Below, in pieces: positions 41,237-49,777 of a stretch of 64,000 nt of DNA. Position numbers and translations under genes: made by a program. Numbering within the stretch: position 1 is the stretch's first letter; every line of letters starts with the position of its first letter. The DNA comes from Candidatus Obscuribacteraceae bacterium (GTDB lineage Bacteria; Cyanobacteriota; Vampirovibrionia; Obscuribacterales; Obscuribacteraceae): assembly GCA_044229845.1 (NCBI GenBank), contig JBGASG010000006.1, positions 1-64,000 of the forward strand, read 5' to 3'. Below the pieces are notes generated by a model. The model did no database searches and was not told the origin of the DNA. It saw only the letters and a program-made list of their open reading frames with translations.

Positions 41237-42022
41237 CTATGACTTCCATTTGATGCTGTCGAGAGTTTCGTTAAACTCTCGGACATGCTGATGCAGCTTG
41301 CCGGGCGCCGTTGACAGAAAGACCTGTTCGACTCGGGAGCCGGTGCCATCGGTATCGGCGAAAATGCCTTTGTATTGCCGCGTAACAGCTCGGCCTTGTG
41401 CGTCGGTTTTGTCGCCGTCCTTGAAATTGCCTTCGACAGCGAGCACGGTCTTGCCATTCAGTTGCATCGTGTACGCACTCGTGATTTCAAATGCCGGCGG
41501 GCGATACTTCCCACTATTCGTATATTGATTGTCGCCGGCTTGATAGCGCCCCATAATCTCCGACAGCGAGCGAATCTCGTCGGCAGTCAATCTCTGCGGT
41601 CCGTCCTCGGCAGGCTTGTTCTTCAGTATGTTGAGAAACGCCTTCGCAGACTCAGAACCGGCGCGCAGCCCGTTGCTGTAGATGCCAATGGTGGTCGCAT
41701 TATCGCCAGGCGGACTGAAAGTTTCGTTGCTGCTCAAACCAATCGAGCCGAACGATGCTTCGCGCTGCCTCCAGCCACTGGGCAGATCAATATCGCTAAT
41801 CGGTCCGCGGTCGATGCCACCGCTGGTGCCACTACCAGACTGTCCCGCATACATGAGGCGGAAGTATGTCATGGCAGCATTGTCACCCCACACCGACTGG
41901 GCCACATCAGTTTGCTGCGCGCCCGCGTCCGACACTTCGGCTGGGTGAGACAGGCGCCCGGTGTAATGTTCCAGTTCGCCTGCTGGATTTGATTTAGAAG
42001 ACTGTGTGTTATCACCGGCCAT
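41237..42022 (-). CDS. Array protein A1: uncharacterised, PsbP/Mog1/DcrB-like C-terminal domain
   Basis: Paralogue of 45083-45805 and 48810-49628 (DRGPI..I.LP.GW, GDNQYTN.G.YR.P.F, NG.TV..VEG.F, FAD.DG.G..V.QV, SI.WK). Confidence 0.8.
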   Translation of the reverse strand: MAGDNTQSSKSNPAGELEHYTGRLSHPAEVSDAGAQQTDVAQSVWGDNAAMTYFRLMYAGQSGSGTSGGIDRGPISDIDLPSGWRQREASFGSIGLSSNETFSPPGDNATTIGIYSNGLRAGSESAKAFLNILKNKPAEDGPQRLTADEIRSLSEIMGRYQAGDNQYTNSGKYRPPAFEITSAYTMQLNGKTVLAVEGNFKDGDKTDAQGRAVTRQYKGIFADTDGTGSRVEQVFLSTAPGKLHQHVREFNETLDSIKWKS

Positions 42023-42094
42023 TATTATTCCTTCCTGTTTTAGTGGATTGAGCTGACGACTGAGTGTTTCTTGAATGCCTTATTTATGCCTTTT

Positions 42095-44692
42095 TTAGTT
42101 GTATGTGGCACGGTACATGTCATTGACGCTCACCCAGTGATCTGAGTCGTCGCCCCAGGTGTTATCGATCAACACCTGCCCGGTGACCGGATTGTAATCA
42201 TCGATGACAACTACGTGATTCATGTTGTGTCCCTTCGTTCCGGGCAGTGAATTGCCGCCGAACACGGGGTCACCCGCCGCTACATATATGATGATCGGCA
42301 TGCGTCCTTCCGCTTTGGCCTTCTCCAGTTGCTCACGGAACTCCTGCTCGTTCTCGAATGTGGTGCCCTTGCCGCCGAGATCGCCATACTTCCCGTTAAT
42401 GAAGAATGCAGACTGATCAGGGTTGAGGCGTTGAGTTTCTTCGGCGATGGCTTCGCAGCCCCAGCCATGGAAACCCATGGGAATCGGGTTGCCGTCCTTG
42501 TCTTTATCGGGTAGCGGGTTGCCGTCGGCGTCGGTCCAGAATTCGCCGGTCGAGTTTTGCCCATCCGGTTGCAATTGAGCGTAGTACTTGGGCGGGTGTT
42601 GCCGGCTGCCCCAGTCACTGATGGCTGTCGCCTGGAAGATCTGCGATGCGAACAAGCGCTCGTTGGAGTTGGTGCTGTCGTACGAACCTTCTTGTGGAAT
42701 GAAGTTTTGCGGCGGAATGGTGACCTTGTGCCCGTCGGGAGAGGTCCACTCGCCCGTGAGCGCCATGTCGGACACCATCTCAGCGGCAGCAGCCGGATTG
42801 CGCATCCAGGTAACGACCTCCACGTCGGTGACGTTGCAGGTCAGGTGGTAGCCCTGGTCGATGCTCGACGGATCGGCGGCGAATGCCATCATCTGTTTGG
42901 CCAGCACTTTGCGCAGGGTGCCGTCTACTTTGCCGTCGGTGGCGGTGAGCAGTTTATCAATGGCGCCCAATGTGCGCGCCACTTCTTCAGGGCTCATGCC
43001 GGCTTGTTCGGCGCGCTGCAAGAACGTGTTCAGGTTGTTGAGGAACTCCTGGCGCTCTTTCTCAGGCAGATTGCGGGCGGCGTCGTCCATGAGGCGAGCG
43101 GCTTCCAGACCTTGAACGGCTTCGCCAACTTGATCCCAGCCGAACTTTTCGACCAGATCATCGGTCAGGCGCGAACCATACTCCTTCTCGTACATCTGTT
43201 GCAGAGCGACGCGGTCGGCGGGGCTCATGTTTTTCAGTTCGTCGTTAATCTTGTCGCCGAACCCGCCAGACACCCAGTCAGGAAATTTGTCGCCATCGTG
43301 AATGGCTTTCATTATCTCCTGGAGCTGCTCTTCGGTCCGCGCTGTCACAGAAGTGGTGCCATCGGTATTCTCGATGACGATATGTCCATCTTTGTCGGTG
43401 TACTGCAGCCGTCCATCTTTATCCAGTTGAACGTTGGTCAGCTTGTTGCCGTCATTGTCGGTCCAGTCTCCGTTGCCGTCGCGCGTGAATGTGTTGCCTT
43501 TCTCCGTAATCTTGTTCAGTTCGCCGTTGGCATCGTATTCGTAGCTACGCCTCGTGCGTCCGTCGGCGCTGACATAACTGGTTACCTGTCCATCGGCATT
43601 GAACTCATTCTTCGAACCATTGGCGTTGGTAACAGCCTGAGTGCGGTCCGGACGTTTTTCGATTTTTTCGCCGGTTTCCGGATTTGTGTAGGAGATCACA
43701 CCCTTGTCGCTGACGGATACATCGGTGATGGGTGCCGGCTGACCATCGGCTGTGGTCCATTTGCCGTCTTTGAGAAAATAGGCATGCCCGTTGTCGTTGA
43801 AACTGTTTAGATTGCCGTCCTCGTCATAGCCGAACGCACTCGCATCTCCCCTTCCGGTGACAACGCTAACCACGCGTCCTTCACTGTCAAGACTGACCAG
43901 CGAACCGTCCCTGGAGCTGTGAATTTGCGAGTTGCCGTTTGAAAAATAACTGTATTCGTGTCCGTCGCTGGTCTGGTAAGTGAAGGTGCCATCGGCATTG
44001 ACTTGCGGATCAATAATGTCGGGACCGCCCTTGCCGAATATACCCGGAGGGATCTTAATACCACCATCAGTGGTATCGCCGGGATTATTGTTGGTGCCGT
44101 CACCATGCGGCTTGGCGTCGTTGTCTATTTTGCTACCGGGCTTCGGTGGTCCGGGAATCGGCTTGTTATTGTCGTTCTTGGCGTATTGCCATTTGCCGTC
44201 CTTGAGTTCGAGAACGGTGCCATCAGGCTGCTCGATGCGATTGAGTTTGCCGTCTTCGCCATAACCAAACTTGCGGGACGTGCCGTCCGGATAATCGACT
44301 TCGACTACCCGTCCCTGGTCATCCTTGGTCACCTTGCCGTTAGGACCGACGTCCGACTGCTGTTGCTGCTCAATACGCCGATCAGAGAGTTCTTTCAGCT
44401 TTTCCTGAAGCGTCTCTTGATCGTCTTTATTCCTGTCGTTGTTTATCTCATTTTGCCTGCCATCAAACGTGATCGACCCATCGGCGTCCACATCAGCGTG
44501 CGACAACGGACCAGGCGGCGGTGCCACCACTTCCAAATTGTCGGCGCTGGAGCCATACCGCAGAGCACCGCTGGTCGTACCGGAGGTTTGCTTTTTGGCA
44601 TCAAAGTCATCGTACAGTGCCTTAATATCGAAGGTCGGCGCCGCATTGTTGTTTTGCGTTTGCGCTTGCGTATCGGTGGTTTCTGGAGGCAT
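42095..44692 (-). CDS. Array protein B1: YD-like repeats + annexin-like repeat + papain-like cysteine protease domain (865 aa)
   Basis: AAGGAG RBS before ATG 44692; YD-like units (DDQGRVVEVDYPDGTSRKFGY); DRVALQQMYEKEYGSRLTDDL; IDQGYHLTC...NHVVVI.DY...IDNTWG. Confidence 0.85.
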   Translation of the reverse strand: MPPETTDTQAQTQNNNAAPTFDIKALYDDFDAKKQTSGTTSGALRYGSSADNLEVVAPPPGPLSHADVDADGSITFDGRQNEINNDRNKDDQETLQEKLKELSDRRIEQQQQSDVGPNGKVTKDDQGRVVEVDYPDGTSRKFGYGEDGKLNRIEQPDGTVLELKDGKWQYAKNDNNKPIPGPPKPGSKIDNDAKPHGDGTNNNPGDTTDGGIKIPPGIFGKGGPDIIDPQVNADGTFTYQTSDGHEYSYFSNGNSQIHSSRDGSLVSLDSEGRVVSVVTGRGDASAFGYDEDGNLNSFNDNGHAYFLKDGKWTTADGQPAPITDVSVSDKGVISYTNPETGEKIEKRPDRTQAVTNANGSKNEFNADGQVTSYVSADGRTRRSYEYDANGELNKITEKGNTFTRDGNGDWTDNDGNKLTNVQLDKDGRLQYTDKDGHIVIENTDGTTSVTARTEEQLQEIMKAIHDGDKFPDWVSGGFGDKINDELKNMSPADRVALQQMYEKEYGSRLTDDLVEKFGWDQVGEAVQGLEAARLMDDAARNLPEKERQEFLNNLNTFLQRAEQAGMSPEEVARTLGAIDKLLTATDGKVDGTLRKVLAKQMMAFAADPSSIDQGYHLTCNVTDVEVVTWMRNPAAAAEMVSDMALTGEWTSPDGHKVTIPPQNFIPQEGSYDSTNSNERLFASQIFQATAISDWGSRQHPPKYYAQLQPDGQNSTGEFWTDADGNPLPDKDKDGNPIPMGFHGWGCEAIAEETQRLNPDQSAFFINGKYGDLGGKGTTFENEQEFREQLEKAKAEGRMPIIIYVAAGDPVFGGNSLPGTKGHNMNHVVVIDDYNPVTGQVLIDNTWGDDSDHWVSVNDMYRATYN

Positions 44693-49628: not shown

Positions 49629-49733
49629 GTTAGTAACGTCCTTCTTGTAGGGAGAGGAGCGAGAAAAAATTGGCGACGGTGCCCAACCGAACCGCAAAAG
49701 CGCGTTCAGATGAGGATGGGCGGGATTGGTTGA

Positions 49734-49777
49734 ACTATAACAGTTGTGCTTACAGATATCAGTGCGCTATTGCGCAC
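49734..49777 (-). promoter_or_regulatory. Promoter P3 of A3 with palindromic site abutting -35
   Basis: Minus strand: GTGCGCAATAGCGCAC / CTGATA; 17 nt; TATAGT with extended TGn. Confidence 0.75.

Follow-up and report, generated by a model that had tools for sequence, protein, structure and literature searches.

Eag (DUF1795) chaperones such as EagT6 and SciW bind the transmembrane domains (TMDs) of their effectors and require PAAR/VgrG (PMC12881460). In Cpe1/Cpi1-type systems a C-terminal papain-like domain is followed by a small co-diverging gene (PMC12136450), and in bacterial toxins elsewhere a single annexin domain precedes an enzymatic toxin domain (PMC3482391, PMC3894181). In the class Vampirovibrionia, a T-type, largely plasmid-borne type IV secretion system (T4SS) has been proposed to deliver the hydrolases of Vampirovibrio chlorellavorus to its prey (PMC4451040). 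Here we describe an array of five genes from a member of the same class, a Candidatus Obscuribacteraceae bacterium of the order Obscuribacterales, in a stretch of 64,000 nucleotides (the window: contig C3:1-64000 of genome G000, a 5.16-Mb assembly that is 88% complete). The array pairs proteins ending in a papain-fold domain (B) with proteins of the Mog1p/PsbP fold (A), and we put the probability that B is an exported cysteine-protease effector, with A as its cognate inhibitor or chaperone, at roughly 0.45. The gene pair is a hint of attack on, or manipulation of, other cells by these bacteria.

The five open reading frames (ORFs), A3, B2-A2 and B1-A1, all lie on the minus strand between 41237 and 49628, with promoters P1 to P3 reaching up to 49777; starts were picked by ATG plus ribosome-binding site. 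This is the layout described by the initial annotation of the window, which had seen five same-strand genes in three units, built from full-length B paralogues and A paralogues. Identity between B1 (42095-44692, 865 aa) and B2 (45866-48556, 896 aa) is 58% over the full length, rising to 70% for the protease and falling to 25% for the N-terminus, and within their protease domains they share an identical 38-bp tract, exactly where it had been reported (42660-42697 and 46428-46465). The A domains of A1 (41237-42022, 261 aa), A2 (45083-45805, 240 aa) and A3 (48810-49628, 272 aa) show 46-61% identity to A2. A3 is an orphan paralogue that heads the array; a tree groups it with A1 and A2 (support 90), and with P3 it makes up a third unit without B. 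The repeat spacing, 3768 bp for B, 3828 bp for A and 3862 bp for the promoter, shows that the promoter-B-A segment was duplicated as a single unit. The intergenic gaps between the units contain no convincing intrinsic terminator. The locus is 99% identical to one in a record titled Candidatus Obscuribacterales. Congener G254 differs at two places inside the array: a segment of about 128 bp that separates the A2 stop from P1 (44960-45082), single copy in G000, is missing there, and the long B2 leader (48640-48690) holds short tandem repeats of an 11-nt unit, of which G254 has one copy fewer.

The enzymatic part of B is its C-terminal domain. An AlphaFold2 (AF2) model of B1 built from 53 sequences (predicted local distance difference test score (pLDDT) 83; predicted template modelling score (pTM) 0.77) comprises a low-confidence N-terminus (residues 1-112), a YD beta-meander (113-453), a helical annexin-like repeat (451-538), a helical domain (~540-605) and an alpha/beta domain (606-865; minus strand, 42098-42877). 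VIA-align, the source of both the protease and the annexin fold matches of B1, aligned this last domain with papain-fold enzymes: Alr0975 phytochelatin synthase (Z 10.4), calpain-9 (9.6), ComA C39 (9.4), PeiR (9.0) and staphopain (8.7). For residues ~588-865, papain-like enzymes fill most of the top 50 rows, the best with a root-mean-square deviation (rmsd) of 3.4 over 159 aligned residues. The catalytic residues are Gln613, Cys619, His826 and Asn844 in B1, and the B2 counterparts are Gln645, Cys651, His857 and Asn875; in 40 aligned homologues these residues occur in the same order, with Gln, His and Asn kept in all 40 and Cys in 39. Consistent with the papain-fold protease called by the initial annotation, the modelled domain is of the papain fold (clan CA) with an intact catalytic Gln-Cys-His-Asn set, and proteolytic activity is very probable on this model. 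The top fold match, phytochelatin synthase, is a transpeptidase, and the papain fold includes such enzymes.

By sequence, the domain falls outside described families. None of 11 protease domains matched a Pfam peptidase family of the C1, C2, C39 or C10 type at E ≤ 1, the only traces being weak ones to caricain (E 0.18) and, in one homologue, to Peptidase_C39_2 (E 0.028). Pfam, NCBIfam and PDB sequence searches returned no family for the B protease or for A, and together with the literature searches they uphold the earlier view that the array matches no characterised family. Foldseek on full-length B1 gave YD-repeat matches only, with a TM-score of about 0.1 to Rhs shells. The nearest ESM Atlas clusters of the protease are unnamed, most commonly from Myxococcota (score 0.96), which is a lead only. 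Against congener G254, the ratio of non-synonymous to synonymous substitution (dN/dS) is 0.006-0.009 for the protease and 0.04-0.12 for the five genes by a crude count.

Upstream of the protease, the annexin assignment held in part. One annexin-like repeat is present in B1 (43079-43342), which aligns with alpha-14 giardin at Z 9.1 (rmsd 2.6 for 80 residues) and with several annexin-domain entries at Z 7.5-9.2 (rmsd 2.3-2.9 over ~80 residues), values that are common for helical bundles. The Pfam Annexin match of B1 is below threshold (E 0.075), B2 has none, and a motif check found neither a GxGT calcium loop nor KGD in B1 or B2, and a single repeat with no four-repeat core. Because the GxGT loop is absent, membrane targeting of B is only putative; most members of the B family lack the repeat. 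The YD/RHS-repeat meander (43334-44356) is short, at only ~340 aa (PF05593, 56 bits; TIGR01643, 43 bits), and neither B1 nor B2 matches an RHS core family or PAAR or contains a DPxG motif. Likewise, the initial annotation had noted no PAAR, VgrG or Rhs core and a C-terminal enzyme that is conserved rather than polymorphic. It had also reported variable N-termini without Sec/Tat signals, and we find the same: the N-termini are disordered in both models made (A2 and B1), no array protein has a hydrophobic signal or transmembrane segment (top 19-residue Kyte-Doolittle means 0.5-1.5; 1.08 and 1.54 for the B proteins), and none has RR in its first 40 residues.

An AF2 model of A2 from 146 sequences (pLDDT 83) adopts the Mog1p/PsbP fold over residues ~50-240, and A1, by homology to that model, has a disordered N-terminus followed by the same fold at residues ~69-261. 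The closest fold matches are CyanoP (Z 12.6), PA0094 (10.8), TplEi (10.3), DcrB (8.7), SciW (8.6), Tsi3 (7.9) and PA3488 (7.1). Foldseek agrees (EagT6, E 9e-4), so that the PsbP/DcrB fold first suggested for A is recovered by two methods. In profile searches, the DUF1795/DcrB profile matched none of 15 A domains at E ≤ 1 in Pfam and none of A1-A3 in NCBIfam; a profile of A itself collected 951 clusters (50% identity) at E ≤ 0.001. In the ESM Atlas the nearest clusters to A are unnamed, and DUF4946 comes second at 0.95, again a lead only. The N-terminus lacks a signal peptide in 141 of 146 A proteins and is hydrophobic in the other five. Many A proteins carry a disordered N-terminus of their own, 40-90 residues long, and a short class (~170 aa) lacks the extension.

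The initial annotation presented the array as a candidate new system. It is real, and it is one of many B-A loci in the genome and the order. G000 has 14 B genes, of which one is split over two frames and two match the profile in its first part only, and 16 A domains. Ten of the 14 B genes are followed immediately by an A gene or fused to one. The other Obscuribacterales genomes encode B in 60 of 60 (1-27 matches each) and A in 57 of 60 (1-20); B is present in 0 of 118 other Vampirovibrionia genomes, among which V. chlorellavorus was not confirmed, and A was not found in a 200-genome sample of the phylum, which held no member of this family. Most records carrying the protease domain are titled Obscuribacterales or Melainabacteria. 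Four are titled Bryobacterales, Actinobacteria, Oculatellaceae or Proteobacteria; the three of these off-order records that were inspected have 46-49% guanine plus cytosine and Obscuribacterales-like neighbours, and are therefore probably mis-titled. The array is a small part of an order-wide, multi-copy expansion of protease and partner, and in the genomes scanned the protease family is confined to Obscuribacterales.

Linkage of A to B, whose absence elsewhere would have counted against the initial annotation, recurs in other genomes. A lies directly downstream at 24 of the 29 best-scoring B loci, a favourable sample with 1.5-kb flanks. A wider scan of 57 B loci, which overlaps that sample, found 22 with A downstream, 29 without and 6 that ended too soon, or 22 of 51 evaluable. 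Since a genome has no more than 20 A genes out of several thousand, adjacency by chance should be well under 1%. Linkage is thus frequent, not obligate. The two proteins are also fused, as B-A in P0009, P0014, P0152 and G000 (C8:79226) and as A-B in P0059 and, judged by eye, P0086. The G000 fusion lacks the catalytic Cys, which two other fusions keep; it occupies C8:79226-81829, in tandem after an intact B-A pair, retains Gln, His and Asn, and is conserved in relatives. Across 31 adjacent pairs the identities of A and B are correlated (Spearman 0.62, P 2e-4), A and B have the same nearest neighbour in 13 of these pairs, and quick trees of A and B have several clades in common, which indicates joint inheritance rather than proving binding. 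Tandem arrays recur in other genera, including in G223 the A-B-A-B-A order of this array (hand-chosen loci).

Among B paralogues the protease and A are constant and the N-terminal parts vary, between YD, LysM-like, FHA and annexin modules. LysM-like domains occur in several of them (PF01476, E 4e-4, just under the cut-off), and the papain domain sits in open frames of ~400 to 7,400 aa with unrelated N-terminal parts. A 2,100-aa B paralogue (C1:447790-454092) combines annexin repeats above the Pfam cut-off (31.5 bits for a paralogue) with FHA domains and YD repeats, and its relatives include open frames of up to about 7,400 aa. In another paralogue (C8:513364-515132) the protease is split over two frames, by pseudogenization or assembly error, and an A gene still follows. 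Three YD-repeat proteins (C8:43851-47108, C9:12552-15620 and C22:60398-63391) have B-like N-terminal halves and other C-terminal domains, and a clostripain-family protease without a signal-like N-terminus (C8:52635-54275) adjoins a B gene. Full-text searches, in which subscription journals were mostly uncovered, found no description of the A-B pair or of the T4SS-like genes of Obscuribacterales. The main text of PMC10318531, a classification of papain-like families, makes no mention of Melainabacteria, Obscuribacter or annexin; its supplements, and likewise those of PMC3482391, could list related domains.

All three units share one promoter architecture, as the initial annotation had recognized. 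P1 (44888-44931), P2 (48750-48793, 17 bp past the A3 stop) and P3 (49734-49777), all on the minus strand, each comprise a 16-bp palindrome that ends exactly 22 nt before an extended -10 box (TG-n-TAnnnT). The pattern, derived from the very sites counted, occurs three times in the window (44931, 48793 and 49777) against 0.01 expected, a number that 0 of 100 shuffled windows reached. A fourth copy with the same spacing (C8:54947) precedes the closest B paralogue in G000, which has no A, and congener G254 retains all four. Inspected B-A loci of other genera lack the promoter, which restricts the shared motif to a single genus; scanning 185,579 genomes returned 12 stretches, four in one Obscuribacterales metagenome-assembled genome (MAG) and eight single matches in unrelated taxa, which we take as chance. 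The palindrome is centred at about -42 and overlaps the -35 position, the class II activator geometry of CRP/FNR-type promoters, from which we infer either a class II activator site or a repressor overlapping -35. Co-regulation of the units by a common regulator is likely on this pattern. The Fur-family gene divergent from P3 was considered as that regulator and judged unlikely, because Fur/PerR boxes are AT-rich, unlike the palindrome; with rubrerythrin it forms an ordinary peroxide-stress pair (50056-51065). Upstream of P3, a ~100-bp element with an inverted repeat (49831-49931) is absent at that place in G254 and has 76-81% identical copies at C13:1424-1524, inside a T4SS-like cluster, and at C22:365233-365306. 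Short contigs from four sludge metatranscriptomes, runs chosen because they hold the array stretch, map to all five genes, and one crosses from B2 into A2, covering over 31 bases of either gene; no contig covers 39500-41100 or the bins holding P1 and P3. Such contigs show neither strand nor transcript, and DNA may be present, so they are a weak hint of transcription.

Profiling of secretion systems, by which the initial annotation had hoped to identify a dedicated export route, told against some machines and in favour of others: T3SS/flagellar and T6SS (types III and VI secretion) are nearly absent from the order, and a T4SS-like VirB4/VirD4 core and Tad-like loci are present. FlhA/SctV, TssC and a VgrG domain were not found in the 88%-complete G000, and order-wide FlhA/SctV and a VgrG-type domain each occur in 1 of 61 genomes. 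On this absence of markers, T3SS/flagellar, T6SS and extracellular contractile injection system (eCIS) routes were rejected. G000 encodes two TraC/VirB4-like ATPases, closest to CD1110/TraC-type VirB4 models; PF03135 (VirB4) has no match in G000 despite these divergent genes. Orthologues of one of the two that are 75-87% identical are present in 32 of 32 genomes of the order, and matches elsewhere in the class are weak, at 21-28% identity. A second conserved cluster (C13:1-12741) has VirB4-, VirD4-, TrbL- and Replic_Relax-like genes, and its VirD4-like gene is found in 58 of 61 order genomes at 72-81% identity. This conservation argues for a core chromosomal machine rather than a mobile element, and we tentatively regard that machine as the most plausible export route for B. 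A genome-wide search for a common N-terminal export motif yielded nothing, being swamped by Ser/Thr kinase motifs. One VirB4-like ATPase stands in a T4SS-like cluster next to riboflavin genes (C17:20254-33818), and a stand-alone copy, 66% identical to it, lies at C13:100089-102914. Two Tad-like pilus loci with CpaF-sized ATPases (C19:379077-392266 and C22:232082-239113) had their neighbours judged by eye; Tad is a possible contact machine or export route.

We favour a model in which B is a clan-CA (papain/calpain-type) protease carried on interchangeable N-terminal modules, here the YD meander and annexin-like repeat and in paralogues LysM, FHA or long beta-repeats, and would act outside the producer cytoplasm, on a neighbouring or host cell. 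A would be its cognate cytoplasmic partner, an inhibitor-chaperone that binds the protease module and holds B inactive and export-competent, a role modelled on the PsbP-fold proteins Tsi3 and TplEi and on the Eag proteins that serve T6SS effectors. Export would be independent of a signal peptide, most likely via the core chromosomal VirB4/VirD4 machine of the order, and the array would stem from tandem duplication of promoter-B-A units, with one palindrome-binding regulator switching all. The model draws on gene order, co-divergence, fusions, modules of a kind typical for exported proteins, and fold precedents, effector immunity proteins and chaperones being among the best PsbP-fold matches of A. 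From these sequence features, export of B is reasonably likely, and binding of A to B is slightly favoured over its absence.

Several observations weigh against this model. A is undetectable at 29 of the 51 evaluable B loci and missing beside the closest B paralogue in G000, which has the same promoter; a dedicated immunity gene would be expected to be more strictly linked. The disordered N-termini of many A proteins and the five hydrophobic ones would fit export of A itself, and in fold A comes closest to PsbP proteins rather than to immunity proteins, within a functionally promiscuous fold. The crude dN/dS comparison with G254 gave no sign of diversifying selection and no arms-race signature. 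As for the T4SS, G000 yielded no VirD4-like gene, its cluster running off the start of contig C13; the T4SS-like clusters inspected contain no B or A gene; the second of them has a Replic_Relax gene and could move DNA; and co-occurrence of B and A with the machine amounts to one clade-level event.

The same features admit other readings. A could be exported with B as a subunit or co-effector that targets, activates or presents substrate, instead of staying behind as inhibitor or chaperone. The B-like disordered N-termini of many A proteins, fusions in both orders (two with the catalytic motif intact), orphan A genes such as A3 behind its own promoter copy and the frequent B genes without A all fit this reading, but the short A class has no N-terminal extension, A nearly always occupies the downstream position usual for immunity and chaperone genes, and the solved PsbP-fold effector partners are, by their structure titles, neutralisers or chaperones; we consider it unlikely. 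The conserved, non-polymorphic papain domain, found with unrelated N-terminal parts in frames of such different length, might otherwise serve to auto-process or mature surface or extracellular proteins such as adhesins, matrix or giant proteins, with A aiding folding or timing, and papain-like domains do serve as releasing peptidases in other systems (PMC3482391). However, the protease is the last domain in B1 and B2, with no cargo behind it, and a conflict system is suggested by the tandem arrays, the orphan partners and the presence of as many as 27 matches in one genome, which makes a maturation role improbable.

We give still less weight to readings that change the target or the compartment. 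As a peptidoglycan or other wall endopeptidase or amidase, B would act on prey or on its own envelope with A as inhibitor; the LysM-like domains of several paralogues, fold matches to the pseudomurein endoisopeptidase PeiR (Z 9.0) and the P210 CD lyase (Z 8.9), and the precedent of Tsi3, which neutralises a muramidase, speak for a wall hydrolase. Yet the Q..C / H / N-x-WG layout is papain/calpain-like, there is no NlpC/P60 or CHAP match, and the inhibitor would have to be periplasmic although 141 of 146 A proteins have no signal peptide, so this role seems quite improbable. Least probable of all is an intracellular, calpain-like regulatory protease with A as adaptor and no export: it would accord with the missing signal peptide, the calpain among the best fold matches and a purifying selection like that of a housekeeping neighbour, but not with the YD, LysM and annexin-like modules, which are characteristic of proteins that are exported, or with a copy number of 1 to 27 between genomes.

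Under the exported-effector model, a wider and more doubtful picture would have Obscuribacterales as cryptic predators or host manipulators, in which an ancient, vertically inherited T4SS delivers an arsenal of papain-fold proteases, each under a PsbP-fold inhibitor and diversified by swapping targeting modules instead of toxin domains. If true, this picture would define a new class of protease inhibitor as well as a polymorphic effector system turned around. Obscuribacterales, non-photosynthetic relatives of cyanobacteria, have not been cultured, although MAG collections from sludge, soil and water often contain them, and nothing on their secreted proteins emerged from our literature searches. 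A protease in every genome of the order sampled, with a PsbP-fold partner and a T4SS-like core, offers a handle on their lifestyle and on whether predation reaches beyond Vampirovibrio. The locus also adds two new protein families, a clan-CA protease without a Pfam match and a PsbP-fold protein of ~950 clusters, both testable in E. coli without culture.

Next to the array, a sixth same-strand gene, for a DUF4328 membrane protein (40522-41172, minus strand), begins 64 bp past A1. It is possibly co-transcribed with A1 and probably outside the B-A module, and it is absent from the other B-A loci inspected. Elsewhere in the window, a 1,013-aa protein that joins a spermidine-synthase domain to a flavin amine-oxidase domain (58538-61579) lies next to a DUF4178 gene, and three Ser/Thr kinase-TPR genes fall within 20 kb (7161-26937); kinases are very abundant in G000.

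How, then, does the array compare with described systems? Like the Eag loci, it places a Mog1p/PsbP-fold gene beside a YD-repeat protein with a C-terminal enzyme. Unlike them, B is devoid of both TMD and PAAR, A does not match DUF1795 and lies downstream of B, and the order has almost no T6SS markers. With Rhs polymorphic toxins B shares YD repeats, but it has neither the core cocoon nor a DPxG site, and its C-terminal domain is the most conserved part while the N-terminal parts vary, the reverse of the arrangement in polymorphic toxins. The PsbP-fold T6SS immunity proteins of Tsi3-Tse3, TplEi-TplE and PA3488-PldA resemble A in fold (Z 7.9, 10.3 and 7.1) and in adjoining an enzyme gene; their targets, however, are a muramidase and lipases, and most A proteins have no signal peptide. 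Our searches revealed no cysteine protease with a PsbP-fold inhibitor, and A may be the first of its fold to inhibit one.

The downstream, co-diverging small gene recalls Cpe1/Cpi1, the papain-like toxins of T6SS and contact-dependent inhibition (CDI), and Tox-PL, and the Citrobacter rodentium CdiA-CT aligns with the B protease at Z 7.9 over 124 residues. B differs from this group in having no CdiA, PAAR, VgrG or Rhs carrier, in its larger domain of ~260 aa with a conserved helical N-terminal domain, and in the lack of any PDB sequence match to its protease at E ≤ 10. Annexin-domain toxins (Haliangium, Microscilla and those delivered by Photorhabdus virulence cassettes (PVC)) likewise carry one annexin-like repeat upstream of an enzyme domain; theirs is a metallopeptidase, lipase or nuclease with PVC/eCIS, whereas here it is a cysteine protease, with no eCIS spike domain and no GxGT loop. 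The predation model for V. chlorellavorus comes from the same class and shares the idea of T4SS delivery, but the Obscuribacterales machine is chromosomal, single-copy and of a different VirB4 affinity, nearest the CD1110/TraC type. The array thus resembles an effector/partner locus, yet it is no Eag-Rhs, Cpe1/Cpi1 or PVC-annexin system; all of its parts are known folds.

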